Shown: one piece after another, positions 12,114 through 62,104 of the stretch
How the letters are laid out: every line of letters begins with the position of its first letter
Numbering within the stretch: position 1 is the stretch's first letter
Assembly (NCBI GenBank): GCA_951406725.2
Contig: OX597820.1
Location: 127,348,001-127,412,000, forward strand
DNA: 64,000 nucleotides
Reading direction: 5' to 3'
DNA from: Octopus vulgaris
Taxonomy: Eukaryota
The notes under the pieces: generated by a model
What the model saw: only the letters and a program-made list of their open reading frames with translations
Databases searched by the model: none
Told to the model about the DNA's origin: nothing
Program-made: the position numbers and the translations under genes

Positions 12114-12180
12114 TATGCCATATGTCTTTCAATAACCAGTTTATCTTAGATAAGCTGGTTATTGAAAGAGGTATGGCATA
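12114..12180. repeat. 67-nt hairpin
   Basis: tatgccatatgtctttcaataaccagtttatct-t-agataagctggttattgaaagaggtatggcata. Confidence 0.85.
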
Positions 12181-12447
12181 CATGTATGTTAATATGATTA
12201 TTATTTAAACTATTGCATTCAAACTGATCAAGTTCAGTTACCACAAAGGCAATGCCCTTTTTTCAAGCCAACCATATTTGGTCTTTGGCATAGAAACCTG
12301 TTTTCCTTTGTTTCAATATTTCAAAATTTTATTTGAACACATCACCAGATGCTAGTATTTATAAATGACTGCTAGAAAAGATATAGTGTTAATGAATGCT
12401 AAAGGGTGATATAATGTAACATTTGAAATGTGTTTATTTTAATATAG

Positions 12448-21179: not shown

Positions 21180-21427
21180 GACCAGAAAAATGGAGAAAAC
21201 CAATTCAAATAACAAAATTGTGAACAACACTCCAACAAGTACGCTGAATCGTCCAGTTTCTGGTCAAGGTTATGATGACAGCACATTGTCCCCAACACGG
21301 CCATTAACAAAGAACAGCGTTCCTGGCACTTACCCTCCCCGAGATAACCAAGATGCCAACATGGGCTGGCTGCCAAAAGGCAGTATCTGTGAAAATGGCA
21401 GTGGTGGTGGTGGCAGTGCTGGATCAG
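21180..21427 (+). CDS. CTNND2: delta-catenin-like exon, start of low-complexity C-terminal tail, phase 2-1
   Basis: ttctgtAG / CAG|GTAATG. A 248-nt open frame (R)TRKMEKTNSNNKIVNNTPTSTLNRPVSGQGYDDSTLSP...GSGGGGSAGS with coding-like GC content, in phase with the previous exon. Confidence 0.85.

Positions 21428-22229: not shown

Positions 22230-22230
<1 letters not shown>
21775..22230 (+). mobile_element. 5'-truncated CR1/L2-group LINE: ORF2 C-terminus plus 3' UTR
   Basis: Uninterrupted KLKLYSLQRRRERYII...GPALFN..P..IK....FKKSVDRFLQEIPDKP...NNSL to a stop at 22155, typical of the post-RT region of CR1/L2-type ORF2. Embedded in a TA microsatellite. Confidence 0.85.
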
Positions 22231-23030
<800 letters not shown>

Positions 23031-26494: not shown

Positions 26495-26530
26495 TGACAA
26501 GGGGAAGCATATCTCGTAGATATTTCAACG
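26495..26530 (+). CDS. candidate 36-nt cassette exon of the catenin tail, phase 1-1
   Basis: Long pyrimidine tract containing TGC, ending ctAG; consensus donor G|GTGAGT. Stop-free (V)TRGSISRRYFN in the incoming phase. Confidence 0.72.
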
Positions 26531-28089
26531 GTGAGTCTTTTGCCAAAAGAATGTTTGCTTACTGTGTGCCATCAATAATTTTTTTAAAAATCATATAATT
26601 ACAATAAAATAAAGCCCATGGTTGTCTCATTCAACTTTTGCTTTGAATCAAATTGACTGATTGCTAAAAATCCTGCCAATATCCCTACCGGGTGGTAGTT
26701 CACTGAAGTTTGTTTGGCACTTGAAATTCATTAAAATATTATTATTGATTATTATTATTATCATTATTATTATTATTATTATTATTATCATTATTGTGGG
26801 CATTATTGAAAGGTTTGAGGACAAAAGCAATTTCTCAACAATTTCAAGTACTCTTTGTTGAAAAAAAGACTGGTGGTGTTAGAGAGGCTACCGTCAAATT
26901 TTATGGAAGGATTGGTATGACTAAATGGACCTGTTATGCAACTCTCAGTTGGTAGTAGGCACTCAGAGAAGGTGTTTACCTTTGTGTATGTTTCTTAATC
27001 AATAATCCACTATTGTGTGTAGGATAACCCTTACCTCAGCCACTCTTTTTGGTCGTCTTTAATTCAGGGATCCTTTCATTTTGTTGCCATTGTTATCTAT
27101 TTATTCATGTTTGTTGTTGTTATTGTTGGTCTTGTCTTTTTTTATTCAATTTAATTCTCTTCCAACTGAATTTCTCCACAACACACACTTCTCATTTTGT
27201 TCTTGTACTGACCCCCCCCCCACACACTCCAATCACTTTTGGTTTTTGTAGCTTATAAATGAAAGAGAATGCAGAATAATGCTTTTCCTTATTACAAATT
27301 GCATTCTAAGATCAAATTCTGCCAAGGTTTATTTTCGATTTTTTAAAAAATTTATTTATTTTGTAGAAATAGCAGTAATACACTGGTGTTAGTTACTGAA
27401 ACTTTTTTGCATGCCTAGAAAAAATTATTGATGCTGTAGCTATGGCAACTGTCTTTGTTGCTCTTATTTTAAGCATCAAGTCAAATATTGTCCTTGTAAC
27501 AGCTTCTTTATTTTGCCATTTCTTGGATGTTTGGCACTCGTTTCTTTGTAGAAAATGGTCTGATAGCTATATGCTGAAACACAGACACAAGATGATAAAA
27601 TGATTTTAGTGTCCAGAAATATTTCATACACAGTTGAATCTATTTACATATATAGTTTGGTACAATCACATTGTCTTGAGGTTTATAGCCTCTTTGCAAT
27701 CCTGGCATTTCTTTCCATGATTTCACTGTCTCATATATCTCTTCTCTGATGGTACAGTGTCCTCAGTTATGCTTTTATTGATGCATTTTATAATGTTTTA
27801 GGCTCCATTGTGTGTGTATACACACACACACACACACACATAATGTGGAGTTTCACATATTCCATGTTTTTTACATATTGTTTATGTATTGATACATGCA
27901 TATAGATAGATATAATCTCAACATTCTTTTCTTATATATGCAAACGCTTATTTTGGTTAGTGTTTTTTTCTCCCCCTTTTTACACACACATTGCTTTTAT
28001 CATACAGTTCATGTCACCTTATATTGATTATCAGAGTGACTGTCTGGCAACTTTTGTGAGGTTTGGGGACTTTTTCCCTTTTTACTCAG

Positions 28090-28110
28090 AAAATCATTTT
28101 TCTTTATCAG
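28090..28110 (+). CDS. candidate 21-nt microexon, phase 1-1
   Basis: tttttccctttttactcAG acceptor, CAG|GTATGA donor; reads (E)NHFSLS. Confidence 0.45.
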
Positions 28111-29799
28111 GTATGATGTCATCTTGGCTGTCAGCTTTCTTCTTCTCAGCAGTTCAGCCTTGAAATTAATTTTCTTTCTGACTTTTTCTCAGTACATGGT
28201 TACATGTTGCCAATAGTGATACTGGAACCTATTTGTTTCTTTTACCTAACCTTCATTGTTCGTTGGTCTTAATCCTATTCTTTTTACCTTCTCTCTCACT
28301 ATCCTCTTTTTGGTAATCTTCTAATTATGATGCATTTTCACAGCAAATGGAGCCATCATGTGGTACTTCATAATTCCATTCATAAGATACGTGTGTATAC
28401 ATACACACACACACACACACCTATATGTTATGCTCATTCCTGGTCCTGGTTAGCTACATATCCATGCACACAACTAGCTCTGTCTGTTTGTCTGTCCATC
28501 TGTCTTGTTATTCTTCTCACTGCAAATCTTAAGCAAATCTTAATAGTTAGGATTCAAATCTGTTTCAGCAGAACACTACGTCTCTGTTTTCCTTCTGACT
28601 GTAGAACTGGTCTAAGGAATTCCATTCCCCACCTTATCTCCCTTCAGTCATTTTTTTTTCTTCTTCTTAACCAATTTGTCTGTTCTCAGAGGCAACCATA
28701 AGAATATTAAATTTAGGGGTTTTTTTTTTTCTCAATACAAAAAGAACATTTTTGCTCACAATTGATTTTTATTTGCCTTATGCTTTCCTTGGATTCACTT
28801 CCCAACATCTTTTTCCCTTTCTCCCCTCTGTGTGCGAGTTACAAAAATATTGTAAGCAAGGTTATGCCAGTTTGTCAACCAATTAGCTTAGCTGCCCTTT
28901 AGCTTTTAATGCAAGCTTAAAACATACATATTACAAACACACTGCTATTCATTTTAAATTTGCTCCCTTTTGTACTTCCTTTTTTTATTATTATCATTAT
29001 TATTATTAAGTCTTAAAATCTCTCATTTTTTCCTCCCTCTTTTTGCATGACTATTTTTCTTGCTTCTAACTACTTAAATTTACTGTCAATCTCTTGCTGC
29101 ACATTTTGATGCTACTTTCCCCCCCCCCCCTTCATCCCTTGCATATCCTCATCACTTTGTCTATCTTAATAACCACGTTTTCTCTGATTGTGTGTTGCTT
29201 CTTATGCTCGGGTTTCATCGAATTGATCCTTTGTTTGTCTTTCTTGACACAGATTACATATAAACTCTGTGTGTGTGTGTGTTCAATTCATTATTTTCTT
29301 ACAAATACTCTGCAAAATACGTGTGAGTGTGTGTACTTATAGAGTATTAAAAGAATGTAAGCTATTTCTGCTATTGTGAGAGAGGGAAATATGTGTGTAT
29401 ATTTCAGTATATATACACATTAAGTAACTATTATTCTTAGTGATCTTGCAGAAGCACACCTTTATCCATATTTACCTGGTTTTTGATGTTTTTCTAACCC
29501 ACCTCCACCACCACTTTAAAAACATAATAGACATCACTACAGAGCAATCCTGATGCTTCTTTCATATGGATCATACATTCTCTCCAAAATTTGGCCAACA
29601 AATGGTGTGAATTGATCTTTGTAAATAGAAACAGATTGGACTTGACCCTTTTGATACCATCCTGCCTCCTGTTCTATTATAAAACTTCCCATTTTAAAGT
29701 GACCTGAATCAAACCGCCCCTAATTCTATGTTATAAACTTCCTGTTTCAAAGCACTCTAAATTAAAACCTTCTATCAAAAATTCTTGCTAATTTATGTT

Positions 29800-29836
<37 letters not shown>

Positions 29837-31277
29837 GCTTTACATTTTAGCATTGAAACAGGCCATATCCTGCCTATTTTATTTTTCGAACGACATTGTA
29901 GGATAGGTCTGAGGGGCCAGATTTGTCCAGTTTGAAAACAAACTACCTCATCATCAGAATCTTGAAATCACAAGATAAAGTCATGATCAATTCAAAACAG
30001 TGTGAATAAATAAGCGTTCCATTTAACAGAATAACCTGAACTTTAAAGGTTTAATAATGAATGACAGTTCTTTTACTAAATTCTTCACTATTTTTCGAAA
30101 TTAATTGCAACAAAGGCACTGTACGTCCAATAGAAATCTGACAAAAAGGTCAATTACAGTATAAAGGTAGCGTCAAAAGTTGATTGTAGAGATGTGTTAC
30201 TAATTGTCAGAAAGTTGCAGCTTCTAGGAACTGTGTAGGGGTAGGATGGCCGGTGGGGTTAATTGAAGTGTGACTTCAATTTTTTTAACCAATTTTTGTT
30301 TTTTTTGTAGGGTTGTTTTTACTTATCGTTTGCAGTGTGTATTTATTGTATATGTAATGTTTATTTCTTATGCTGCTATTTGAATTTTTATCTTTTGTGT
30401 GTTTTTGTTGCTTTTGTTTTTTTAAAAGTTTCTGATTGGTATGTTGACTCGAAAATATTACCTGACAACTGCATGGTTGATTGGCTCAATACACATTGAA
30501 GCCTCTCCAATGATGCTGAAAGTGTTTGGGCCTCTCTCTCTCTCTCTTTTTTTGTTAGAGGATATTAAATGTAATTATCATCGTTGATAATGTTTGAGAG
30601 GTTATCTTAACTTAGATTTTGCTTCAGTATTTGGTCGTAAGTTATATGAGACTGGTGTATGAGATTATGATTGCACTAAACTAAACAATCTTGGTTACTT
30701 CTGTTTTACTTGTTACTGTTCTGGTTAAGTCCTCCTCTACCCAACCCGGTTTTGATGAAACAAACCTATTATCAGATATTTTCCAGCCTTGACTATCTCA
30801 TCTTTTTATTTCCAAGGAGAGATTTATGCTCAGCATTGCATGCAAAAACGGAGAGATAAAATTCTCAAGACATTGCTCCAGCAGACCAGTGACTGAAACC
30901 AATCAAAGAATAATTTATACAAAACTGCTTACAGCAATGAACTAACTCTAGACATTGGAGGAGAATTGATTGACTTGGTTCTTGTTATTGTTGTTTACAT
31001 CCAGCTCAGCCCTAGTCAAGTGGACTTCTAATCAAAGGACTTTTTATTTTATTGTCTGGTAGTTTGCAAGTAGATCCAACTTACCTGTATACCTTTCCTC
31101 TTAAGACTTTGTGGTGGGACACTCAGAGTTACAGTGACGTAGATATGTATTCTAGTTTTTTTGATCTTGTTTGTATCATTTTTGGTAGCAGCAAACACTT
31201 TGAGATCGGTGGAGTGGGGGCTTGTTCAGACATCATCTCTGAACCAATTGACAAATAGTCAGTAGGTTGCTAATTAA

Positions 31278-31497
31278 CTCTTTCATTACTGTATTTATTT
31301 TGAGATGCTCTGTGTTTCTTTCAATTATTTTAAATATAACAAAGAATTTAGTAAAATAACTTTGTTATCATTCAGCTAGTGTTAGGAACATAAATTGTGA
31401 CTAAGGTTTGGTGGAAGATTTTAATTCAAAACTTATGAAAACAAGACATTTGTACTCAGAACCAGAGCCAGTTTCAGGTGGGTTGGTAACAAAAGGG
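31278..31497. mobile_element. piggyBac-like MITE, second family
   Basis: TTAA|ctcttt...aaaaggg|TTAA. Relatives near 2255-2447, 29645-29800, 48320-48542, 60780-60935 and 63414-63635. Confidence 0.7.
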
Positions 31498-32864
31498 TTA
31501 AAGAAAAACTTGCTGATGTCCTATTTCTGTAAGTTCATGAGATACTTTGACATTAAAGTTGTATTGAACTGTTGTTAGTTAGCTGCTTTTAGTTGTTGCA
31601 TAACTTTAGTCAAGGTTGCAGAAACAGGAAACATCTGATTGAACAATATTTTATGGTTATTTCTAGTCATGGTGTGCCTTCACTGAAAGTAGATCTACCA
31701 GAAACTGATGTGTTTTATTGTTTTTTAAGTTTACTAGATACATTGATGTTAAAGCTGTATAGAGCAGCTGTCACAGTTAGCTGCATTTAGTTGCTCTGTA
31801 ACTTTGGTCAAGGCTGTAGAAACAGGAAACAGTTGATCAAGTGGTGTATTATTGATATTTCTAGTTGTGGTCATGAAGCCTTCGTTGATACAGTAGTAGA
31901 TCTACTAAAGACTGGATTGAACCAAATTATATAATGGAGCATATCTTCCAAAAATATAGCCTTTAAAATACTGATGTACATAACATTTAGAATGTGTATA
32001 CAAGCATGAAACGACACTAGCTGTAATATTTTGTTTCTGAAATTTTTCTTAGACTTGCTCCACTCCACCCTTGACATTTGACCCAACTATGTGTTTTGTA
32101 ACTTACAAGTCCCTTTGAGAAGTTTCTCTGAGACAAAATATTATAGCTAGCACCATTCTACAATTTTATATGTATTACAAATGTTACACATATTAATTTA
32201 ATTCAATTCTAGCCCAGTTAGCTTTCACACAAATCAGTGAATTGTTTTTTTGTTTTTTTTCTTTACTGATGTCATTATCAGAACTGGCATTTTTTGGTTT
32301 AGTTCTTGAGTGTTAATTACTGATGAGTGAAGACCGGATTAGTTCAAAACAATGTCTGATGATCCACTGATGACATTCTGAGTGAGCTGTGTTTTGTAAC
32401 ATGCACACACTTCTCATTGTGAACTTTCTCTGAGACGAAATATTGCAGCTAGCATTGTTCTATATTTGTACGTACATTGTTACATGCACAATTATTATAA
32501 TCAAATGCAGTGTTAAGTGTGTGTATTGATTTAATATTGTCTTTATTTCAAAGATTATCTAGAGTTTCAGAGATTTCATTTCAATTTTGAAATGTTCAAA
32601 CAACTAGCGAGTTCTGGAAAAGTTCTTTAATTTTTTTGTTTTAGTTGTTAACTGTTGCAGAGGAGAGTGTTACAAAATCTTTTATCAGTTCCTTTTTTGT
32701 TGAGTTATGCAAGATATCTGCAGTTGATACTTGGATGCAGGGCAGATCACTAGGGTCATGAATTTAAATGCCTTTGCTTGTAGAATAAGAGTACACTGGG
32801 GATGGTAAGTCTCTTCATATATATATATATATATATATATGAAACTAGAAGTGCACAAAGCAAA

Positions 32865-33184
32865 GTGTACAATTGTATTTAACAAGCTCATGCGCACTAT
32901 TATGTGAAAAGACATTTGCCATGGATTGCTTAGGGAAAGAAATTCTCCTTATAAACACCACTGGGCCATGAATGATGTCATCATACCTTAGGACATGTGT
33001 TTCTGCATTGTTACACTTCTTAAGATAGAGACATTGTATCCATCATTCACATTCCACTAAGAATTGCTGTTCTTTTATTTTCATATAGTCTATAAGGAGA
33101 ATTCTTCTCCTGAGTCATTTCTACCCATAGCAAAGCTTTTCCCATGTCCAGGTGTACATGAACATATTAAATATAATTGTACAC
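32865..33184. mobile_element. old MITE-like element with long imperfect inverted arms
   Basis: gtgtacaattgtatttaa...aattctccttata vs tataaggagaatt...ttaaatataattgtacac. Confidence 0.55.
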
Positions 33185-33326
33185 AATTATATTTCAATTT
33201 TTGCTGCTTCATGTTCGTCTAGTTAATTAATTCTAACTTGACAAAGCTTGTTGCACATCAACAAATTTTCTAATGTAAGAACAGCAGTTCTTACTGGGCT
33301 ATGACTGACAGATTTGTCTTCTATAG

Positions 33327-33356
33327 TTGATGAAGCAAAATGGTACAGAAACACGG
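33327..33356 (+). CDS. candidate 30-nt exon, phase 1-1
   Basis: CTGAC branch-like motif + tttgtcttctatAG; reads (V)DEAKWYRNT. Donor G|GTCTTG is weak. Confidence 0.3.
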
Positions 33357-33467
33357 GTCTTGTTGTCCACTGATGTCATTCATAGCCTAATTTCTATGGA
33401 GAAAATCTTTCCACATCCAAGTGGACACAAACATGTTGAATGTAATTGTATTCACTTTACATATATA

Positions 33468-33524
<57 letters not shown>

Positions 33525-34097
33525 ATATATATTATTATTATTATTATTATTACTACTACTACAAAGCAAAGAAACTCTGCTTTTGCTGATTCATAGGAAT
33601 AGCTCTTCTGAAATAATATTTCAAATTCAACAATTCTGTTTCAGAAATAGTATCTATGAATGCGTGAAAGCAGAGTTTCCTTGCTTAAACATTAAATCTG
33701 TAAATTATGCTTTATATATATAAAGTCTTCTTGGTGCCTGAAATATAGCACTTAGCAAGAACTCCAAGGAACAATGGAGTAAATCGCCAGCTTCAAACAA
33801 ATATATATTTATTTCAACTTTCTATACAAACATGGACAAGATTTTTCTGAGGTCTTTTCTTTTTATGTAGCCCGATGAGCTTCCTGTCGCCTTTTACTGT
33901 CTCTTACAACACACACCCTGTCCCTGCATACCTTGAGCCATCTGAAGAGATTGGTAATAGGTTGGGCCATAAAGCACAGTCTCAGAAAATCATCCAATCC
34001 ATGCCAATATAGAAAAGCAGATGTATAACAATGATGATGATGATGATGATGTCTGATTTTCTTTTTTCTTTTTCTTTTCTGTTTTCTTCTCTTTCAG

Positions 34098-34120
34098 AAA
34101 TCCATTGCAGTAATGAAAGG
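34098..34120 (+). CDS. candidate 23-nt microexon, phase 1-0
   Basis: About 40-nt pyrimidine tract ending ctttcAG; consensus donor G|GTGAGT; reads (E)IHCSNER. Supplies the phase 1 to 0 shift needed to join 21427 to 62003. Confidence 0.72.
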
Positions 34121-36630
34121 GTGAGTAGATTTAAAATTTAATTTTAAGGGAGGATAACAAGAAAAAATATTTCAGCTCTAATGAATTGTCGTCTAAAATG
34201 TCCATATCCATTTATGTATGTGTGTTTGTCTCTCAATATATGTGTGTGTGTGTGTGTGTGTGTCTGTGTGTATATATATATATTTAAAAACACACACACA
34301 CAAAGAATCTGAAGTGTCATTGCTCAATTCCAGTTTGTGCATGTGATACTGCCAACAGTCATGATAGCTGTGGAATTATTGTGCTGTACTACTGGCCTCA
34401 TGGTCACAATTTTCAAACTTTATACCAATATTTTACACATGGCACATAACTCTGTCTTCCATGTCATGGATCAGTTCAACTACACTGCCAGCAATGTCTG
34501 CCAACTATGTGACTAAGTTATATGTAGGCAAAACTGGTCTCAGACTAGTCAATACATTTATTGAGCAGCTTTAGGGTATCTGACTATGCAATGTTAGATG
34601 ACCTGTTACCCACCATTACCTTTCACCTAACCACACAGATTAGCATGTATTCATTTCTAGTATCACCTTACACCATGATTCTCCTTTATCCCAGTTCCAA
34701 CATAACAGTAACTCATTCTTCACCTTGGAACAGCTCAGCTAATAAAACAACTGACTTTATTTCTTGTAGCTACATACATTTGCAGAAACATGCATGTAAA
34801 TACTCACACATTGTTGGTCTGATTATAATAGTTATACACACACCTCACAGTACACCATGTTTTACTTATAACTTCCACACACTTCAAATATATAAAATAC
34901 TAACACAGTCTCACATTTATACACATGTACTCACACAGCAACAGATAAACATTTACACAGACACACATGAGTTACTCATCCCTTATGACCCTTTACTATC
35001 ACCCTTGTAGCTGTAAAACTCCTTTCCTTTTCCCTTCCAATTTTCCACTCATCACACAGCCTTTCTCTCTACTAATTCAACATACATTTTCATTTCATAG
35101 AACTTCTTTTTCTGGGGTTTTTTCTCCCCTTTTCTTTCTTCTGAAGTGGGGCAGCAGCTCCAAACTGTAGAATATTCTTTTTTTTCTTCTTTCCAGCATT
35201 TAACTAATTTTGTAAATATTGTATTTATAATATTGTTCTGTGTGTCTTTTATTTCTGAGACACTGCCTGGGACTTTCCCTCATACAGATGAAGGACTCTT
35301 ATTCACAGAATATTTCATTTGGATCCCATTGGACCCTTATTACCATTATGGGAACTGTGGGTTGGCAGGATCATTAGTGTTAGGTAAAATACCTTGTTGT
35401 ATTAGATTCAACATTTTATGTTCTGAGTTCAACTTGGCTTTTCGTCCTTTCAGAGTCAATAAAATAAAGTACCAATCAAGAATTGGTTGTTGGTTTAATC
35501 AACTATTCCCCTCCTGTTAGAAATAATTATTGGTTATTGTTCCAGCTTACCTAGTTGGCAAAAGTTAGTTTTATCCTTTCATGATTGAGTTCTTAATTAA
35601 AGTGATGAAGATATCCAGCTGCAAAATTGATAGCTCCAGTAAATAAATCATTCAACTTGTACCAGTAGATATACATTTCTCATTGTCAAAAGAACACTAC
35701 CTCAAGCTGGCAGTGAGTTAACTGTTCCAGAAAAAATTGCTATAATACTAACTTGTTTAACTTACGCTAGCATAGAGCATACACACACATATATTACAAG
35801 ATATGAAACAGGTGATCCCAAATTGGGGTGAATGTAACCCCTGAAGGGTTCATTTCTCTTTGCTTAGGAATTAAATTTGCTGGTCCTGGATCTGTACTTC
35901 TTTTTTTTTTTCAATTATATTTTTCTTTTAAATGTCAAGTTTTGAAGAAAATGAAGTGGACCTATTTTGATGAAAAATACTAATTTTATTTTCTGTCACC
36001 TGTAGCCCATACTTTTTAATTATTTTACCAAGTGGTCTTATTCAGATGTTTGAGTTTGGTTCTGGTATCCATTCATCATTATTAGATCATTGATATTAGC
36101 ATCATTTTAACTTAGAAATAAGAATGTTTTAAAACGATATTTTAAACCCCACCCTTTATTTTGGCCGAAGTGTAAACTTGAATTATTGCACAAAATAGTG
36201 CAGGAGTAAGTTTACTTTCAAACAGTTACCAAGATGTACTTTGGCTGAAAAATATCAGGAACTCCTGTTGTAAGGCTAATGGTGATGCATGATATTTTAA
36301 CCAACCAGTCTTCTTGTTAATTTGTACTATATTACATAATTTTTGATTCCCATTAAAAGATCAGATGCAAATTTGTATAGTATTGAGTCGATTGACTTGG
36401 CAACGTTATGTTGCATTTCCTTATTCTTGCACCTTAAAGTATGAAGTAGGAGTGAAACTGTTTGTGTTAACTGAGTCTGCTATGGAAAACTTGGTTAACA
36501 AAAGCATGCAAAACTTCAGAGTTATGTGCCTTGCCTGGTTATACCACACAATGGCTGTTGTAGTTATTAAGTTTGAAATCCTGTCCATGTAATTCATAGT
36601 ATAACACTTTAAATTCACAGCTGGGAAATG

Positions 36631-36664
<34 letters not shown>

Positions 36665-39114
36665 AATGAATCAATGTCATAATCTTGTGACTGAAAGAAG
36701 CTGGCTCGCCATTGAGTTATAAATATTGTTTATATTTTCAGCAAAATTGTGATTAAATATTTGAATTTATTTCTTTATTTACATTCTTTTCCTTTTCAGC
36801 TTGTATTTCTTTTTTTCTCCGTTTCAAAGAATTTACCTTTTTGTTGTTAACTAGTAAAGGTAGACCTATACTCTATATTAGAAAATTAATACAACACATA
36901 CAACTTCAGGGTACCTATAATATCAGGTTACATTGAATCTGCTGTTTCAGAAACAGTAATGTTCTGCTAATTACCCAACAGCAATTTAGTTTCATTTCTC
37001 ATGAAATTTATTTTACCATTTCTGGTTCCTTATGTAGGATCCATAGAGCTTATGGTACCAGGCTATGTCCTATTTTCCTGATGGTCAGGATAATCAATTC
37101 CTCCATGAATTTAATCTCTGACATGTATCTGAAGGCTAACTCCAATCACAGGTGCACACTCACCAGGTGTGAGACATGTTTGAGAGTCCCACAGGTAAGC
37201 TGAAATGACACAAGCCAAATTATTAAGATAACAGAGGTTCTTTGTGACAGAAAATTAATACCAGTTATATAATGAAGTTTATTCAGACTGTTACAGTCCT
37301 CTTATGAATGTGTGGCTTCATACCAATATATAAGTGGTAGGATTGATAAAGTACCAAACAAACTGATTTGCTGTATTTAGTTATCTTTTGACATTAAGTT
37401 CAAATTTTGCTAATGTCAGTTTTGTCTTCCACCTCATCAGAGTACATATTAGTATATCATACTAACTGTAAGTCTTCCCACCCAAATTTGACACCTTATG
37501 CTCATGTGAGAAATGTGTCAAAATCGGTAGAATGCCAAAGTGTTTAAAAGTAGTTATTAGTTTCCCTTCTTTGCATTCTGGTTTCAGATTTTACCAAAAT
37601 TTCTGAAGGGTCAATGTTATTTACCTCATCCCTAAAAGAAACGAGGACTAGCGCCTGTGTTATAAATAATTTTTATCATGTTAAAAATTATAATTATTAA
37701 AGTATTGAACTGGCAGAACCATTAGTTTCAGAAGAATGCTTTGTAGCATTAAGTACCAGTTGAGTACTGGGGTTGATGTAATCGACTAGTCCCTTCCCCC
37801 AAAGTTTCAGGCTTTGTGCCTATAGTAGAAAGGATTATTATTATTATTGTTATTGTTGTATTTTTATTGTTTTAATTTTTATTGTTTTAATTTTGAATCC
37901 TTCAGATTGTTTTAGCACACTTTAAATTCCCTATTTACTGCACTTCCCTCACTAAACCTTATTACTCTGGCAACTACTCTTTGCACTCTTAAGGAACAAT
38001 TGCAAGCTATGGGCATGAAAAGCCATTCTTATTTAGCTCATCATATAAAAGATAATAAAATAAACATCAAGAATGCATAGGTTTGGTTGTCTACTAAAAA
38101 TTCAAATTGCGTGTAGAAGTATCATCATTCTAGTTGAATTCTTAGGGATCACAACATTTAATATCAACTCTAACAACTCCAATAATAATTCATTTATATA
38201 AGGACCCAATTAATTTTGTGAAAAAAAGTCCCATACATGTTCTGTGTAAAACAGTCTTGCTGTAAAATAATTTTGGGTGCTAGAATTATTGGAGAATATG
38301 TGTGGGACTAATAATAATATTAAAGTTTTTGTATAATTATTAGAACACAAGAGACGCGAAGATCTGTGTTAGCAAGAGTGACCACAATAAAAAGTAACGT
38401 GTGATGTGTGGCAAAATCATTCGTATGTTGGACAAATTACTTAGTGGCATTTCTTCTGGATCTTTACATACTCAGTTCAAATTCTGCCAAGATTGACTTT
38501 GCTTTCATTCTCTCAGGGCTGATAAAATAAGTACTAGTTGAGCAGTGGGGTCGATATAATTGACTTATCTCTCCTTTAAACTTATTGGCCACATGCCAAA
38601 ATTTGAAATCATTATTGTACTATGAAGAGAGTAGTTACGTATATTTTGAGCAGAACCCTCCTACAGGGAAATTATGTAAGACTGGTTTCAGTCATGGGAC
38701 TATGGTTATGCTGTCACAACATCTTTTAAAGCATTTAAATTGATCGTATTGGCAACAGTACTTGTTTCAGCTTGATATATATATCAAATATATTAGATTC
38801 TTGACATAAAAGAACATAACTTGATGCATTGATAAAATTAACATAGACATCCAAACACACAGTTTCCATTTATAGTTACCAAATTCTACTCATGCAACGT
38901 TGGTCAACCCAAAGACGTAAGGCAAGACGCCAAAGTTAGTGTGGCATGCGATGAAATTGGAATCACATGGTTACAAAGGAAACTTCTTAATCACATGGCT
39001 GTCTCTACCTCCAAATGTTGATATATTTCATTCTCTACAATTCTACTGAACATGTTTTTTATCCTCTTGCAATTTTCACTGTTTGAACTCCCCATCTATT
39101 TTTTAGGGACTTTT

Positions 39115-39239
39115 AAATATCAAATTATTCTACAGCATAAATAAATATCTTTTATTTATATAACTTTTTTTTTATTAAAATAAAAAAAAGTTATATAAAT
39201 AAAAGATATTTATTTATGCTGTAGAATAATTTGATATTT
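39115..39239. repeat. near-perfect AT-rich palindrome (about 60-bp arms)
   Basis: aaatatcaaattattctacagcataaataaatatc... / ...gatatttatttatgctgtagaataatttgatattt. Confidence 0.9.
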
Positions 39240-39881
39240 TATGGAAATAACTTATAAGTCCCATTAGCATAATAAATCTCATTAAGAGACAGCATGCACA
39301 ATTAATTTCTCACAACTGTAGAATTAATGCGAGCAAAGTGTTACAAAGCTCATATTTTCCATGGGACAATTAACCTCATCTCCTCTGTTTCTATTCAACC
39401 TACAAACCAGTTGTCTTCAGGTCTGCTATTTCCCTTTCCTGATACGGATCCATCCATTTCTTTCTTTTTGTGTGTTATAATTTACTGGTAATTGGCATCC
39501 AGATTTTCTCCTTAAATTTTCCCCTTGCCTTCCTCTTCCACTTTGATTGTTGCCAATCAACTAATCCTAATCATTTCATTCTACATCCTTGGCTCTGACT
39601 ATTTTTTTTTTAATACATGTCATCTTTACATTGTTTATCCCATGAAAGAGATGATATTTGTTGTAGCAGTTTCTCTTACAACTGAATGTTCTTTATGCTG
39701 TCAGCCACAAGTGTAGAGAGGAGGGTGAATGATTTATCAGACTGATAAACAGGCAAACTTAACCAGGCTGTTATATATCTTATCTAAGAGAACAACATGA
39801 TAGCTGTTGCTTAAGAACTCTTGATTATGTGATAAGAAACTCAGCTCTCTTTGTCCTCAAAGCCATGTGTGTGTGTGCGTG

Positions 39882-39912
<31 letters not shown>

Positions 39913-40162
39913 ATATATATGGTGGTACTGTTTCTCAGTACCCTTATAATTATATCTATATAATTATATATCTATATTAATTCTTACCTATATGGTTTCT
40001 ATTACATGCTGGCCACTCATAAGATCATTTATTCATTTTCACACTTTCAACCTGTGCTAATGAAGTGTAAAATGATGTGGTCTTGGAGTCTTTTGACATT
40101 TATCTCTAGTATGTTGTTGTTTCTTGGTCCCCTTAATTATAATTATATATATATATATAATT

Positions 40163-40233
<71 letters not shown>

Positions 40234-40244
40234 TAAATAAATAG

Positions 40245-40467
40245 AATAATAACTCTAGAATGGAATTAATAAATATTTAATACATGCATTTCCACAAATC
40301 ACATGACTTCAACATCAGAGTCTGTATCCTTAGGACACTTACAGTATATCCCATAATATCCGTGGGTATCCCAAAGATACAGACTCTGATGTTAAAGTCC
40401 TGTGATTTGTGGGAATGCACATAGCGATGCATTGAATATTTATAAGTACCATCCTAGAATTATTATT
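40245..40467. repeat. imperfect hairpin element next to a TA microsatellite
   Basis: ccacaaatcacatgacttcaacatcagagtctgtatc vs gatacagactctgatgttaaagtcctgtgatttgtgg, with pairing extending outward on both sides. Confidence 0.8.
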
Positions 40468-40623
40468 ATTATTACTATATTTATCCTACATTATATCAGT
40501 ATAACCATGCCGCAACCCCCAACAAAACTGACTCCCTGGTCAGCATCATTAGACAGTAGCCTACATAATGAAATAGGGGCTTTATTTGCATATCATTAAC
40601 ATTACCATAAACAAATTTAAAAG

Positions 40624-40661
<38 letters not shown>

Positions 40662-41089
40662 ATATACATATATATATAAAATCCATCCTTATATTATGAT
40701 AAAATATCAATTTCAGCATAGAACAGGGCCTCATATTTTTCAAAGGCACAAACATGTAGTGTGTGAAATTACTACATGGCTACACACAAGTCCAGTCACT
40801 GAGTGCACACTCATCTTTGTATACATGTGCATGTGTGTGTGTATATATATATATATGCACACATATATGATGTGCCACTTGTGGACTGTTTATCATATAA
40901 TGCACAATATGATTCCTCTCTTTTAGTTGGTTTGAAGTATTTCTGTTGCAGACATGTTCATGCTCCACCACCACCACCACCACTGCCATAGATGCAGTGT
41001 AAATAGAAACACAAAGCTACAGAATCCAGGGGCAGACAGTTTTCAAATTCAGTTTCTTTTCTGATTTAAAAAATATAAAATTCTGTAGG

Positions 41090-41470
41090 CACAGGTGTGA
41101 TTATGTAGCAAGAAGTTTGCTTCCAACCGCATGGTTTCAACTTCTGTCCATGGTGTGCTAACAGTGCAAAACCCTGGGCTAGTGTCTTTTACCGTAGCCC
41201 TCGGCTGACCAAAGACTTGTGAGTAGATTTGACAGACAGAATCTGAAGGATTGTGTATGTGTGTGTGTGTGTGTGTGTGTTTACACACATACACAAGCAT
41301 GTGTGCCACCACCTCCACTGCTTGACACCCCATGTTTGTTTAACTTCCTGTAACAGAATGTGTACTAGGCTTAAAATGAATTAGTTTCAGGATTGATTTG
41401 TTTGACTTAAACCCTTTCAATGTGGCACCCCAGGATAGCCATAGGCCAGTGGCTGAAACAAGTAGAAGAT
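41090..41470 (+). mobile_element. SINE family B, decayed full-length copy
   Basis: Colinear with 56320-56706 from head to ctgaaacaagta tail. Confidence 0.7.
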
Positions 41471-42260
41471 AAGTTTTTCTTTATTTCTCCCCCCCCCCCC
41501 GTCCCTTTGCAGTTCCTATTATGTTTCCATTAGCCATTTCTTCAAGGTTAGCAAGAAGCACTGAAACAAATAAAAAAAAATGTATTTAAGATGCTTTTAC
41601 AAAGTGACCTTTTGATTACTATCCTTGTGTTATACCTATAGGTAATATACATTATTATTGTTGTAGATACTTAACTGGAGACAGGATGCTTTGCTCATTG
41701 CCAAGTGCAATAAATGATAGTAAGATCATTTTATGAAAACCTCTCATTGCTTCAGTATGTAAAAATCCAAAATTGCAAAAAGCAATTCATTCAGTGTGAT
41801 ATGGAAAGAAAAATGCATGTAAATTAGTTGGGGGAAAGAGAAAATGAAAAAGATCCACTACTTATATACTGAGACAAATATACTTCATGAGTTTTTTTGG
41901 AGACTGGATTACATATGATGTTACATGTAATACTTTCATTTTCATCTAATTAATCCCACAATCTGTAATCTAGATTTTGATGTTTCAACTTTTTAATTCA
42001 TCTTTACCTACACAACGGTATACACAAACAAGCTGCTTCTATTTTTCTATCTTTTTTAGAGCAGTTTTTTTTTTTTTTTGATTGCTCAATTTCCATGATT
42101 TCCCCCCCCCCCCATTGCTCTGTAAAAATGACAATGTTGCAGAAAATGAACAACTGCTATAATTTTTCCTGATTTCCTTGGATTTTTTGAAAACTTTTAT
42201 TGAAGTTTCTGTAGGATCCTCCCTTTGCACCAACTCATCTGATTGATATATTCATCATCC

Positions 42261-42452
42261 TCATTTAACGTCCGTTTTCCACACTAGCATGGCTTGGACG
42301 GTTCGACCGGGGTCTGGAAGCCATGGAGGCTGCACCAGGCTCTAGTCAGAAACACTGCCAAATCAGACTAGAGCCTGGTGCAGCCTCCATGGCTTCCAGA
42401 CCCCGGTCGAACCGTCCAACCCATGCTAGTGTGGAAAACGGACATTAAATGA
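42261..42452. repeat. fold-back duplication of a retroposon 3' segment
   Basis: 42261-42347 is a near-exact reverse complement of 42366-42452; 18-nt loop. Confidence 0.9.
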
Positions 42453-43495
42453 TGATATATATATATATATATATATATATAATGTGTGTGCACTACCCTG
42501 TGAGTATTGAGCATACATACAGAAGCATAAAATAAGTGAAATCTAGTGCTTTCTATAAGACCTGCATATTTTAGTTTCTTAAGTGGTTTAGGTACTTTAT
42601 CATCATCTTCTCCTGGTCTTCCCTATCTTTCATAAGACTCCTCTACTTTTATATCTATTTTCACAAAGCTCTCCATATCTTTCTCACTACATAGCCTCAG
42701 ACTGAACTGGTTTTAGATGACTCTGGTTCTGTTTTGTTTCTTACCATTTCTTTTGCTACCTCTACTATTAGTGATGCTACTCCAGCATGGCCAGCTTGAC
42801 GATTCAAACTAAATAGAGAACTGAAGAACCATTCATTGACAAGTTTCAATTGATGCTGTTTAATAAACGGGTTAACTTTTTTAAGTACATCAAAGGCACT
42901 GAATCCTTGACCATCCCATCTGAGGAGTATCTAATATTTTCTATCAAAGGTCCTTACTACTTTAACTATATGATTTAGGTATGACTCTTACTGCTTTCGG
43001 TAATTTTTATATAAATTCAACATAGAGGGTACTGTTTCAATTATGTATCTAAAAAGTGGAATTTGCTGTAAAGTGGGCAAAATTAGCTTCCTATTGGTTC
43101 TAGGGTTTTTAGGTTTTAACATGGCCCAGAGGTGTTCGAAAAATATCATTGTGTAAATAAGATCATTTCGCACCAAACGGTTTGAGAAACTCTAGTCAGA
43201 AGTTTTTCTGGTGAAGTTCATCAACTGCTTGCTATCGGAATGCTCGTCACTTATACATTGAAGTAACAGAAATGATCATGTCAGTGCAAATGCATTTCTC
43301 TCTATTCTGATTTCAAATCTCATATATGTCAACTTCATCTTTTTAACTCTCCAGGCAAGTGATATAAATATTTGTGATGTGCTGACATATGATTCATTTG
43401 ATTAGTCTTCATTCCTAATGAAATGTGTGGTTTTTGTACTAATCTAAGAAAAAACTATAAATTGCTACTAAGTGCAATCTGTAAGCTCTCTAGCT

Positions 43496-43610
43496 CAGGG
43501 ATGGGCAAATTGTGACCTGTGGCACTCTCTGAATGGCACTTCAACAACAAATTACCTTCGTTTTTTTTAAGTAATGCAGCCTGTTTCTCAAAAGGGGTTC
43601 CCTATGCCTG
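43496..43610. mobile_element. hAT-type MITE
   Basis: cagggatgggcaa...ttccctatgcctg with 8-bp flanks CTCTAGCT and CTCTAGGT (NTCTAGAN-type hAT target). Confidence 0.7.
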
Positions 43611-44647
43611 CTCTAGGTCCTCTACAGAGCTTATTTATTGTTGGAATGATTGAATCAATGAGTATTAAATATTTTGAGTATGGATACAGTACAGTACCAG
43701 TGTTGAGATTTTAACCAGACACCTTCCAGGAGTAATTCCATGCCATTTATAAATTCTGCAAGCCCTAACTCTCATTTTATTAGTTATACATATTGGAAGC
43801 TGAAGAACTGAGTTGAAATCCAGATCAGCTATGAAAATAGAATTCTTGAAGACTATTGAAAAATATTCCAATTAAAATTAATAACACTTATTAATCTTTA
43901 CTCTTGATACTTGATTAATCATTAAAAAAGTTAACACTTTATTGTTGTTGTCAATGTAGTCAGCTGGTGGTATTTTTAGAGCATCTGGAAAAAATGCTTT
44001 GCAGTTTTCTTTCTGTCTCTTTACATTCTAAATTCAAATCTCACCAAGATAAACTTTGCATTTTATCCTCTGGGGTTGATGGCATCAAAATCATTGATCT
44101 TCTAAATCAGAAATCCTTATTGTGCTTGTCACCATGGAAGAAGTGTTAACACTAATGGCTGAGTGGGGAACTACATATCTCTCATTTGTATTGTATCTCA
44201 TCTTTATAGCTCTTCTCATTTCTTAGATTTACAAGGTCAAATTTTTAGAGAATCTGATCTACTTTGAATTAACTCCATCCATCACAAAATTGCTCTCTTG
44301 CTTTCTTAATCATTAATATCCTTATGCTGTCACCTTAATCATCATCATCATCATCATCATCATTCAGTTTAGAAAGCGATTGACTACCATGAAAAAATTT
44401 GAAATTTAATTTTCCTACTTTGAGACTTTTAACTTTTATAGTTCAGCTTAATTTTATTTTTATTTTTTCTGCTTTTTTTCCACTCCCGTTCCACCAGCTT
44501 TAAGCATGGACTTTTTTTTCTAAAGGCCCTTAACTCTGAAAGTGTGTATATGTATGTCAGTGTGTGTGAACATTTCTCTCCTCATTCACTTTCCATTGTT
44601 GCCAGATCTAACAGTGTTGCTGTCATTCTCTGTTGATTTTCTTCTAG

Positions 44648-44664
44648 ATCAGAAAGAAAAGTCG
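44648..44664 (+). CDS. candidate 17-nt microexon
   Basis: CTAAC branch point at 44608-44612, TGC motif, ttttcttctAG, donor G|GTAAGG. Reads IRKKS(R) from phase 0 or (D)QKEKS from phase 1. Confidence 0.55.
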
Positions 44665-44800
44665 GTAAGGAAAGGCTTGAAAAATCTGATCAGTTCTCTA
44701 AAGGGCATTAGATTGTTGAATTATTTAAAATCTTCATTGATCTATTGCCTCTTATTAACAAAACATACAGTTGCTATGTTTCTTTTAGCCTCTCTCTCTC

Positions 44801-44831
<31 letters not shown>

Positions 44832-44934
44832 GTTCTTTGACTCCATTACTCCCAAATTTGCATGGTCTTTAATCTTGTTGCCGTTCTTCGTTCTCTTTCT
44901 ATGTAGAAACCGTACTGCCAGTCTTGCTTATTAA

Positions 44935-45206
44935 CCCTTTAAATGCACCAGCTGTCATGAGTTGGTTAATTTAGCCAAACAATGTTTCCGTTTCCAACAA
45001 AAGAAGTGTACACTGAAAGCTGTCACTTCTTTTTGATGAGGAAAATTCAAATAGATAGACTGTTGTTCTCTTCATTTATGCATGATATATGAAATGATGC
45101 AATTTGTTTAAGGGATAAATTCGATAATATCAACGTATTCAAGCCAAGAAAAACAAATGATTTCCATGAAATCTAAGATGTAACTAAGAAGTTACTACTT
45201 AAAGGG
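44935..45206. mobile_element. piggyBac-like MITE
   Basis: TTAA|ccctttaa...ttaaaggg|TTAA. Confidence 0.65.
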
Positions 45207-46223
45207 TTAATAGGTAGAGTTATAGTCTTTTCCTCTCCAAATTAAAGACCTCCACTCTCTGAAATTCTCCTTCCTTCTACAATACTTTCTGATCGCATGT
45301 CGGTTTTTTTTTTTTTTTTTTAAATGTCTTCCTGAATATTTAAAGAAAATTAAATGTTTAAAATCATTAATTTATTTTTATTTTCATCAATTGAATTTTA
45401 TTTATTAGTAAGTTATTTTTATTTTTTATTTTTTCACCTCCATCATCATGATAGTAAAAAAAATTACTCATCCTTTCATAGCAAAAACAAAAACTTATTT
45501 ATTTTTTATATTTAGTGAAGTTAAAAACACAAGACTTAAAAATTGATACAGAGTTAATTCAACTACAAAAATTTACTCACATTTAAAAAATTTTTTACAC
45601 AGATTATCTCACTTTCAAACTGCTTATTGAAATTAACGAAATATGTTTTATATATTTTGTCATCATATTGTCACTTTTTTTCTTCATAAAATTTGGAACC
45701 ACATAAAAAGAAAATGTACATTATTGTTTAAATGTAATGAAAAAAATTTGGTTATCATTTACACAGTTACATCTATGTTTTTTACTGAGTACCTGCGCAT
45801 CAATAATATAAACTTTCAGATCATATTTTAATTTACCTCTTTAAGTCTACCTGTCTGATAGTCCTCACACTTCACCGTTAATCTTACTCAAAAAAGAAAA
45901 CAAAATTAAATACTAAGTTAAATATACTATTTTATGTATAATAATTTCTTACTAATTTTCACTAAAATGTAAATAGCTATTAAAAACATTTACAATAATT
46001 TTTATAAATTATTTTACAAGTTTTAATTTTTAAAAATTAGTTTGTAGTAGCTAACATGTTTATATATTTTCTTAGATACTTTTTTTATTTATCCATTCAT
46101 TTATTTATTTTGTTTTCATTTTTCATAATCAATTCCAATATTTTACACACTATTTAGAATATTAAGAATGATAATTATTTTTTCCTCACTCTTACTCTGA
46201 CTCTCTCTCTCTCTCTCTCTTAG

Positions 46224-46230
46224 GAAAACT
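46224..46230 (+). CDS. candidate 7-nt microexon, phase 2-0
   Basis: CTGAC + (CT)n tract + tAG | GAAAACT | GTATGA. With the 17-nt exon it totals 24 nt and preserves frame (IRKKSRKT). Confidence 0.35.
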
Positions 46231-49200
46231 GTATGAGAGTAGCCATTCTGTTCTAGTGGCCACTCTTCAGAATCTCCTCCTCCCACTACTACTTTTTATT
46301 TACTCCTACTACCATCACTACAACAACAACAACAACCACTGTTTCTACTTCCATTACTCTACAACACATCTTGGCAACAATATGTTGCTCTATAGTGTAC
46401 GTATATATCCATATACACACTGCATCATGTCATGTGTTTGTTCTCAATGCAAACCTGAATTTTTTTGCTATTTGACTGCCATACTTTGCATGTCACGCCT
46501 GTTTCCTGCTCCCTTCCAGTTGTTGAAAAAAAAAGTTATGATTTTTTTTTTGTTTTTATTTTTTTTTTAATTTTTACCTTTTATCATTAGTGATAAATTG
46601 TTACCAAGCCTAGGTGGAAAAGGCCAGGTGAAAACATTTGTATAGTTGCACTAAACAATGGTGTTGAACAGTTGTGGTTGTGTGTTTGATTGCTGCTGTG
46701 CTCCTTCTTAATTCAAAAATCATGCATCCCAGTGCAGTATTTCAGATTAGTAATAGATCTAAGGGAGCTTTTATTAATTTATTTTTTATAATGAGGAGTA
46801 TTTTCTTGTATGTTTGTCCTATTAAGTTCTGCACCACTAGAAAACAGGTTTGTCACAAGTCATTGAGGAACCAGCTTGTTGTAGCAGCCAAACCTCTCTC
46901 TCTCTCAAAAAAGAAAAAAAAATAATAATAAAGAAACAAAGAAAAGGAATGGGGGGGACACATTTTATACTGTTTTTTAAAACAGGGACCACATGCATAT
47001 TTCTAAGTCCTTAATGTTAGAATAGCACATGCCACCATAAAAAGAAGATGGGTAAAGTTGTCTGAGGTTACTCAATAACAATATATTTGCTGTGAAATAT
47101 GTAGCCAGACATTTGCATGCTCCCCACCATATTTGTTTGAGATAGCTAGTCTTTTGCTGTGAGATAAACATTAACAATCAATTCACGACAGTTTTGATAT
47201 TGAAAAAAAATATATTTTGAGCTAGAAGTTATATGTAGTTATATCTGCTCTGTGTCTTCATTCTCAATATATTCCCTGTGTTTTTCTGTGACGAATACTG
47301 GTTTAAGGTACTTATCTTACATATGTATATTCATATTCAAAGTGGAGGAATTATTAAGGTGCTGTCGTATCAGCCATAGATGGTTCCTATGTTATCACCA
47401 TCAGTGCAATGTATCTGACAGCAGCACTTAATTAACCTTCAATGGTTTGGTCATTTTAGTACTGTTGAGAAGTAGAGTTCAGAAAACATAGTACAGTGTG
47501 AGTACCATGTGACTGAAATAACTTTTTGTTAGTTTTTATGTAGTGCCAAGTTTAAATTTACAATTTGGCTTGGAGAGAAGAGAATGGTATTTGTTCCAGA
47601 GTGTCATTTGGTGAATTATTTCCTAAAGACAAGGCATTCGGTAGTACTTCAACCATTCTACAGGTCACAGGACATTACATGTATATGAATATGCAGATTC
47701 TTGCAATCTCATTACAAAAAAATATATCCCAGATGATCCTTTGATTCAACCTTAAAGATAACTAGTTTTCTTTTTTTTTTATTTTGTACACATAAAAATA
47801 AACCAAAAAAATATTTTACTTCATAAAGGAAAAATATGTAAATCTTGTATAACTCTTTAACTGCATAATTAAATTTCATGGTCATTCCCATAATGATGTT
47901 AATTATGCATCAAAAATTAGAATTGATACTTTCTGTTACTGCGGGTTTTTATATCCACTTCTAAAAGTATTTGATTCTTGCTATGGAAAGAGATATTTGA
48001 TGAAATATGTGGGTGGTAGGGAATTTTTTTAATCTGAAAAATTGCCGTTTGTAAAGTGTCACTGAGGGTATCTCCACTTCTCACAGCTGAAGGGGAGGTT
48101 TTCACAAAGCTGTGGAGTAAAACCACTTTCTGCAGTTAAGATATAAAATTTTGAGTGGACATCTGCTTTCTCTGTTCAAAGGAATGTTAAATTAACATAT
48201 TTACTTACTTACCAGCCTACTTTGCAATGATTCATATTTTAAGTAATAATTTAAAACTCTGAATTAATTTATTGTTAGAAGTAAATATAATATTTAGGTT
48301 TGACCAAGATTCATGTTGACCCTTTTGATATTATTTCCTCTGAGATCACTTCTGGTTCTATGATATCAACTTCCTGTTGTAAAGTGATTTTAAAATCTTC
48401 CCTCAAAATTCCATTATAATTTATGTTCTAAACACCAGCTTCATAATGTCTAAGTTGTTTTGCTAAATTCTCCCTTATTCTCAAAATTAATTGAAACAAA
48501 TGTAGTGTATTTCTACAGAAATATGATTACCAAAAGGGTTAATCTGCTTTAACAAGAGTAAGTTCAACAAATGCTAAAACTGAAATATGCTGACAAGACT
48601 AAAACATATTTAATGTCAATTACAAGGTTCTTCATTCAAATATATAATCCATCTTTAATAACCCTGTCTAGAACATAAGATAATTCTTCTTCATGACCTA
48701 CCAGCTTTCCAGCTTTTGGAGCATTTTTATTCTAAATGAGTAGCAAATTGGCAGTCATTAGAATGTTGGTTACAATGTCTTGAGGTATATGTTCTGATTC
48801 TATCAGTTCTAAGTTCAAATCCTGCCAAGATCAGTTATGCTTGTCTATCTTTTCTAGGTTGATAAAAACATAGTACCAGTTTCGAGCAGTGGATTGGTCA
48901 AATTGTTAGAGCATCAGATTGGATATCATGTGGTATCTGTTCTGGCTCTTGCATTCTCAGTTCATATTCTGCCCTATCATTGGAAAATGCTCAACTGGAT
49001 TTGAAACTGACAAATTGTATAAGCAATCTGAAAACCCAGTGGTAGCATAGTTTACCTGGTCTGATTGCCACAACCACCATTGCTACAAATAATGTGATTA
49101 TAAGATTGTTCAATTCCCTAAGATCTTCCTCTCAAATTCATAATATTTGTCTGGTGCAATTCTTTAGTTTGGTCAAAAATACCTTGCCCAACACATCCAA

Positions 49201-56706: not shown

Positions 56707-57067
56707 ATTCAATATAACCTGAAGAATTTACTTTACAGGCACGTATTTGAGAGTTTCGACATTGTCACGAAATAGCCGCCACTTCTCCCTCAAATCACAG
56801 CGTATCCCAATCAAAGCTCAGCGATAGTGATCAATGGGCTAATTATAAGGAAAGTCCTTTTTATGTTTAATTTTCAGCCTCCGTTGTGTTAGTTTTCACG
56901 TCCAGCATAATCCTTGAGGTAGGGTAATCTTGGCATCTGTCCCGTGTATAACGTGTCATGCAGGGCACACCTCTCTGGTTTCTATTTCACATATGATACA
57001 CATTCTCAGTTTTGTTGGGGTTTTTTAACCTCCACAGTAACATAGGACTTATGAAAGGAAAGCATTA

Positions 57068-61200: not shown

Positions 61201-61437
61201 ATGCTTTTTTGCTGTAGGGTTGTAGCTAAAAGCTTATCTTTTTTGCATTTTTTTTTTTTTTTTTTAGGTAAGAAAGTACTTTAGCTACTGAATTAATATT
61301 TAGGAATGTATAGTGTGTGTGTGTAATTTAGAGAAGAGAACACTCACAAAGAAGCTATTTTGTCAAAAATTAAAATTTATTATTATATCTTACAAAAGTT
61401 CTTAACTAGCCTTTGTTTTTTTAAATGCAATAACTTT

Positions 61438-61853
<416 letters not shown>

Positions 61854-62002
61854 TTGTTTGTTTTTTTGTAATCTCACCTATTTAATAAAATAGTTGACTT
61901 AAATATTATGAACATCAAATTGTATTTTTTTTACGAATTCAAATGACTGACAAAATTCATAAAATCTTTCTATTGCTAATTTCATTCATCTTCTTGTCAC
62001 AG

Positions 62003-62104
62003 GATTCAATACCTTTAAATGACATGGGACCTGGCTATCAAACCCTGGGAGACCAGCGAGGTCATCCAAAATTCACAAATGCTTCTGGGCCAACATCTAG
62101 TCTT
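62003..62104 (+). CDS. CTNND2: delta-catenin-like C-terminal tail exon, phase 0-0
   Basis: CTAAT branch-like motif, cttcttgtcacAG, GTAAGT donor. 102-nt GC-richer open frame DSIPLNDMGPGYQTLGDQRGHPKFTNASGPTSSL. Assignment to the same gene is inferred from strand and position. Confidence 0.75.

Follow-up and report, generated by a model that had tools for sequence, protein, structure and literature searches.

A default splice path and a candidate on/off switch for the C-terminal tail of an Octopus p120/delta-catenin

We analysed a stretch of 64,000 nucleotides (nt) of Octopus vulgaris DNA (assembly GCA_951406725.2, contig OX597820.1, positions 127,348,001 to 127,412,000; hereafter the window, whose own positions are used below). 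Judged by its sequence, the window contains the 3' part of an Octopus p120/delta-catenin gene (ARVCF-like) on the plus strand, in which a 40.6-kb gap separates the exon ending at 21427 from that starting at 62003. A first-pass annotation of the same DNA had placed in this gap seven very small exons that would diversify the C-terminal tail of the catenin in many combinations. Our data indicate that an on/off switch for the tail is likely, not a seven-unit combinatorial array. Specifically, we favor, with a probability of roughly 0.55, a scheme in which the full tail is made by default, a 36-nt exon provides an optional insert, and the off switch would be either of two elements, an optional exon of 17 nt or a last exon used as an alternative to the normal one.

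The 23-nt microexon and the default splice path

The 11 ordinary exons together with a 23-nt unit at 34098 give 533 codons without a stop, which are found letter-for-letter inside two public proteins, P0007 and P0011. P0007 matches the Pfam family Arm (E 1e-34). The closest solved structure to it is p120 catenin (3l6x, E 1e-121), and its best PDB matches are p120 and plakophilin 1 and 2. The last exon lies 1.4 kb past the window end (L002:1378); its terminal residues, DSWV, are predicted by sequence to be the C-terminal PDZ ligand by which a p120/delta-catenin can be recognized. The armadillo repeats, the p120 structure match and the DSWV end thus bear out the first-pass identification of the gene as a delta-catenin.

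The exon ending at 21427 closes in phase 1 and the 62003 exon opens in phase 0. The first-pass annotation reasoned that, if both belong to one transcript, a frame-shifting exon must lie between them, and this phase logic proved correct. Spliced molecules were examined in four sequencing runs from four studies (4 of the 24 listed), as contigs placed on the region 61870-62400. None of the listed runs is on record as RNA, the RNA status of the four being a guess, and their tissue is unspecified; they were used for exon joins only, not for level or tissue. In all four runs the 102-nt exon at 62003 is covered by a contig, one loose end of which consists of the last 7-8 nt of the exon ending at 21427 followed by the 23-nt exon, while the other is the last exon. 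When eight paths were compared with the loose ends, only the path with the 23-nt exon alone fitted. These joins place the 62003 exon in one transcript with the 21427 exon and identify the 23-nt exon as the frame-shifter required between them. The default splice path and the frames and stops of each path are shown by the present analysis. As to the upstream partner, all sampled words of the 248-nt exon (21180..21427) are present in 19 of the 24 listed runs, and the phase-1 intron position at 21427 is mirrored in four squid-like read-through protein fragments. Searches for short and partial proteins, with 2 and 5 hits of which three in the second looked unrelated or were left unexamined, revealed no new tail isoform, only fragments with intron read-through and one abalone protein.

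Protein models give the same picture. The Octopus cluster comprises 15 models, which are isoforms from a few annotation sets and not independent of one another; the wider comparison covers 22 coleoid proteins, including one from Argonauta and six squid-like transcripts. The 23-nt peptide occurs in 15/15 Octopus models, its equivalent in the Argonauta protein is DLHCSNER, and an 8-residue equivalent is present in all six squid-like transcripts.

The gap was also scanned for AG..GT units of 3-60 nt with a coarse splice-site model, which returned 175 candidates on the forward strand. The acceptor model was trained on the gene's own 11 constitutive acceptors and combined with general donor frequencies, and the chance level was defined as the mean number of equal-or-better units over 15 Markov-5 simulations. 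The 23-nt unit ranks first of 175, with a mean of 0.0 equal-or-better units. Some real sites receive poor scores from the model (donor 16561, -4.1; acceptor 21180, 0.0), so a low score cannot exclude an exon. The 23-nt exon, regarded by the first-pass annotation as a cassette, behaves as constitutive (4/4 runs, 15/15 models). The full tail needs it, unless the 17-nt exon takes its place, and correct annotation of the gene depends on including it. By default, the message runs from the 248-nt exon through the 23-nt microexon into the 102-nt exon and encodes the full catenin tail, with DSWV at its end.

Optional exons and loss of the PDZ ligand

That the 36-nt, 17-nt and 41667 exons are used is known here from the public gene models of two species of Octopus. 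The peptide of the 36-nt exon appears, as VTRGSMSHRYFN, in 4 of the 15 Octopus models, all of them O. bimaculoides entries (XP_0147871xx) of one RefSeq set. The unit ranks second of 175 in the splice scan, with a mean of 0.33 equal-or-better units in the simulations. Its inclusion would insert 12 residues into the tail.

The 17-nt exon is found in two O. bimaculoides models, XP_014787128.1 and XP_014787129.1. In both, it joins 62003 directly in a shifted frame and the protein ends …IRKKSRIQYL-stop, without a 7- or 37-nt partner; these annotated ends were reproduced by splicing the window sequence. The first-pass annotation had expected 17 nt plus 7 or 37 nt to restore the frame, and the annotated isoforms are instead frameshifted and lose the tail. 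Placed after the 23-nt exon, the 17-nt exon shortens the protein by its final 86 residues, and with them go two conserved motifs, EPLYAQV and the PDZ ligand DSWV. Among 45 other lophotrochozoan proteins longer than 700 aa, 43 carry both the DSWV end and EPLYA[QR]V, meaning that the segment removed is a conserved part of the protein. Of the two that deviate, one is a Biomphalaria isoform that ends differently and the other a truncated model. A PDZ-less form is thus annotated in a snail too, by another route.

An alternative last exon at 41667, missed by the first-pass annotation, leads to the same protein outcome. Window positions 41667-41714 match the end of O. sinensis XP_036360992.1 at 100%, with a stop at 41715, and the exon is joined from the 23-nt exon; this path also drops 86 residues. 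A polyadenylation-type AATAAA at 41709 overlaps the last two codons, and more such signals lie at 42444 and 42862. In run X14 a contig starts exactly 30 nt before 62003, and there is no rejoining break at 62003. With 31-letter words, the assembly graph breaks at that point if the 23-nt donor has a successor that does not start with G, and the 41667 and 44648 exons both begin with A. The contig start would fit a terminal exon at 41667, but a variant located one base farther upstream, or a gap in coverage, would give the same picture. A 37-residue insert in UniRef A0A0L8FT46 (window 40738-40827, 77%) was considered separately and set aside as a likely prediction artefact: its start differs in the window, and it is present in that one O. 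bimaculoides model alone. Taken with the default path, either the 17-nt exon or the alternative last exon would likely switch the tail off by deleting its final 86 residues.

The flanks of the 17-nt exon look regulated. CTAAC lies 33 nt and UGC 25 nt upstream of its AG, within a context that includes a 31-nt AG-free zone, and of the eight units compared no other has a CTAAY at most 40 nt from its AG. Two copies of TGCATG occur within 500 nt downstream, as they do in 3% of random 500-nt windows. All three acceptor features of the type associated with eMIC regulators (UGC, CUAAY, AG-free zone) are present at the 17-nt exon; the 36-nt exon has UGC and the AG-free zone only, and the 23-nt exon has no near UGC. 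The first-pass annotation had invoked Srrm and Rbfox motifs near some of the units. Over the gap as a whole these are at background level, the surroundings of the 17-nt exon excepted: TGCATG has no strand bias (23 forward vs. 20 reverse) and is absent within 500 nt of the 36-nt exon, UGC lies within 30 nt ahead of 30% of all 1,997 AGs, and 4 of the 11 constitutive acceptors have UGC within 25 nt, one having CTAAY at 20 nt. Its four TGCATG sites do exist, at 44859, 45079, 46487 and 47114, two of them one base away from the positions it gave. An eMIC-type microexon regulator is probably present in the genome, since a match to SRRM_C (PF15230) over the Pfam cut-off was found in an RS-rich frame (32.6 bits, model positions 13-55; L005:1501-1635, G000:C25:37317492-37317626).

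Several observations count against the favored scheme. The support for the 36- and 17-nt exons comes from one annotation set of one other species. Three later O. bimaculoides models and the O. sinensis set, with four models, lack both exons, an argument against their being abundant. Nor do they occur in the Argonauta protein, in the six squid-like transcripts or in the contigs of the four runs, although contigs drop rare forms and their content represents the assembled path, not absence. The 36-nt peptide differs between species at 2 of 12 residues, compared with 26 of 1,283 overall (binomial P ~0.02-0.05, small numbers), which suggests that its sequence is under weak constraint. The splice score of the 17-nt exon is at chance (rank 13, 6.7 equal-or-better units expected). 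Finally, the stop on the 17-nt path lies 86 nt ahead of the last junction, so the message may be decayed instead of translated.

One alternative is that the optional exons are splicing noise, low in level and confined to a lineage, that arises within a 40-kb intron, with only the 23-nt exon of any importance. Their absence from later models, other coleoids and the four runs, the fast change of the 36-nt peptide and the weak 41667 acceptor (-0.5) all agree with such an origin. We consider it improbable. Against it stand the splice sites of the 36-nt unit, surpassed by those of one other unit in 40 kb, and the preservation of the 36- and 17-nt exons in two Octopus species, between which the 17-nt peptide is identical.

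The position of the stop bears on another possibility, namely that the 17-nt exon is a poison exon whose inclusion sends the message to degradation and tunes the amount of catenin, no short protein being made. The 86-nt distance exceeds the 50-55-nt rule and would favor decay if octopus follows that rule, and the exon is found in 0/4 contigs. Decay-sensitive events also constitute one of three classes of non-triplet splicing according to PMC13247117. This explanation is nevertheless rather doubtful: the 17-nt form was abundant enough to yield two RefSeq models, and the alternative last exon, which is followed by no junction, has an equivalent effect on the protein.

A further alternative is that the 44648 unit is used mainly in frame, so that DSWV is kept. 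It could replace the 23-nt exon, both units shifting phase 1 to 0 (giving DQKEKS), and the path with the 17-nt exon alone indeed ends in DSWV. It could also be entered at an inner acceptor, 44653, located 5 nt into the exon; this would make an in-frame 12-nt exon, 44653-44664 (KEKS), and the inner acceptor scores 8.8 vs. 9.0 for the outer one. Neither form is seen in the 22 proteins, and the 23-nt exon has the strongest sites of the intron and is never skipped, so in-frame use appears quite unlikely. The scheme with a full default tail and an off switch remains the one that we prefer.

The seven-unit array and other features of the gene

All seven units of the first-pass array exist: their positions, AG..GT ends, lengths and translations were reproduced, and the three that it called well supported (26495, 34098 and 44648) are each present in public Octopus models. 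Three further points speak for its model, under which the regulated microexons number six or seven and a 7- or 37-nt partner of the 17-nt exon restores the frame: DSWV is reached by 40 of the 128 paths that can be built, the 21-nt unit ranks fifth, and annotation often misses tiny exons. The remaining four units, of 21, 30, 7 and 37 nt, fared differently. Their peptides occur in 0/22 coleoid proteins and the units in 0/4 runs, from which rare isoforms could escape, and they are likely chance splice-like sites (Table 1). The fit of their lengths carries little weight, since the gene strand, with 12 stop-free units that could restore the frame after the 17-nt exon, is no richer in them than the wrong strand, with 19, and the reverse strand holds one such unit as good as the 37-nt unit. 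In addition, the annotated 17-nt isoforms are unrescued, and the longest proposed path turned up in no protein or run. With four of seven units unsupported, one constitutive and one frameshifting, a combinatorial array of cassettes is very improbable.

Table 1. Exons and exon-like units around the 40.6-kb gap (window positions)
Feature	Position	Strand	Evidence
Constitutive 248-nt exon; C-terminal tail begins here; phase-1 end	21180..21427	+	window, models
Optional in-frame 36-nt exon (VTRGSISRRYFN)	26495..26530	+	4/15 models, rank 2
21-nt AG..GT unit without support, though the strongest of the doubtful four	28090..28110	+	rank 5, 2.2 expected by chance
30-nt AG..GT unit, likely chance	33327..33356	+	score -3.0, under scan cut; 238 expected
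23-nt microexon (EIHCSNER), phase 1 to 0	34098..34120	+	runs, models, rank 1
Alternative last exon, coding part (ILNWRQDALLIAKCNK-stop)	41667..41717	+	O. sinensis XP_036360992.1, 1/15 models
Optional 17-nt microexon	44648..44664	+	2/15 models; regulated-looking flanks
7-nt AG..GT unit, preceded by a (CT)n run; likely chance	46224..46230	+	donor -2.1; rank 77, ~80 expected
37-nt AG..GT unit, unsupported	46591..46627	+	rank 14, 7.1 expected
Constitutive 102-nt penultimate exon	62003..62104	+	joined to 23-nt exon and last exon, 4/4 runs

Other features of the gap and of the gene were also recorded. Unlisted AG..GT units scoring at least as well as the 17-nt exon are located at 36800-36859, 56878-56918 and 61218-61314. 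Genome searches around 28090, 41667 and 46591 returned self-matches only; common words were skipped in them, so this does not imply rarity. Long TA-rich microsatellites lie just within both ends of the gap, at 22230-23030 (800 nt) and 61440-61849 (410 nt). In the armadillo-loop intron, 10923-12447, no small exon was visible on inspection by eye, without scoring. Upstream of the window, a 60-residue N-terminal segment is optional both in Octopus (P0013 vs. P0001) and in the squid-like transcripts (P0027 vs. P0029). The N-terminal coiled coil expected of the p120/delta-catenin subfamily would likewise lie upstream of the window. Among gastropods, an optional 10-residue segment ahead of the armadillo repeats is common to Pomacea, Littorina and Biomphalaria, and the Biomphalaria isoforms P0083, P0076 and P0077 show a 2-residue insert difference in the armadillo insert loop.

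Relation to known systems and significance

Vertebrate CTNND2, ARVCF, p0071 and p120 (CTNND1) have the armadillo core in common with the octopus gene, and all but p120 also the C-terminal PDZ ligand. In vertebrates, PDZ-bearing and PDZ-less proteins are divided between paralogues, whereas in octopus splicing of one gene would give both; the two forms would come from a single gene because one armadillo exon finds a single match in the genome. Mouse ARVCF has alternative C-termini, some of which carry the PDZ ligand and some of which lack it, and p120 has the exons A, B and C; literature searches yielded no supporting paper for these. PMC3013132 and PMC10112520 describe the ligand as carried by all core vertebrate members except p120. 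It is ancient and sets the partners of delta-catenin in dendrites, according to PMC3013132, PMC9289679 and PMC7534926.

The neural microexons controlled by SRRM3/4 (eMIC) are similar in size to the 17- and 23-nt exons and, as described in PMC8797185 and 10.1101/2024.09.17.613571, share CUAAY, UGC and an AG-free zone with the 17-nt exon. The likeness is partial. Microexons of the eMIC type are defined as up to 27 nt in PMC8378409, and the 36-nt exon exceeds this length; the 23-nt exon lacks a UGC close by and seems to be constitutive; and inclusion of the 17-nt exon changes the frame. A parallel in this last respect is the non-triplet splicing of worm and human, which leads to alternative C-terminal lengths or to decay (PMC13247117). 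There, a cassette whose length three does not divide displaces the stop codon and leaves a shorter C-terminus, as in the octopus 17-nt path.

The automatic RefSeq predictions XP_014787125-130 (O. bimaculoides) and XP_036360992 (O. sinensis) already include the 36-, 23- and 17-nt exons and the 41667 exon. The supported exons are thus already in the automatic annotation, the mechanism is of a known sort, and the value of the finding is modest. Literature searches found no study of these octopus exons, and bioRxiv 10.64898/2026.09.05.749416, which examines splicing across eight tissues of O. bimaculoides, may give their inclusion levels.

The favored scheme carries two inferences: the 17-nt path would give a stable PDZ-less catenin that keeps the armadillo repeats and loses binding to PDZ scaffolds, and inclusion of the exon would be higher in neurons. 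A more ambitious version of the off switch can be formulated. A single octopus p120-family gene might make two kinds of protein, one resembling delta-catenin and bearing the PDZ ligand, the other stable, PDZ-less and resembling p120, with a frameshifting, eMIC/Rbfox-controlled 17-nt exon as the neuronal switch; we put this forward tentatively and consider it unlikely.

In vertebrates, the PDZ ligand sets the synaptic role of delta-catenin apart from that of p120. If the idea is true, the 17-nt PDZ toggle would offer a one-exon test of how the brain of an invertebrate with one such gene obtains both functions, and splicing would have reached in octopus a split that vertebrates got by gene duplication.

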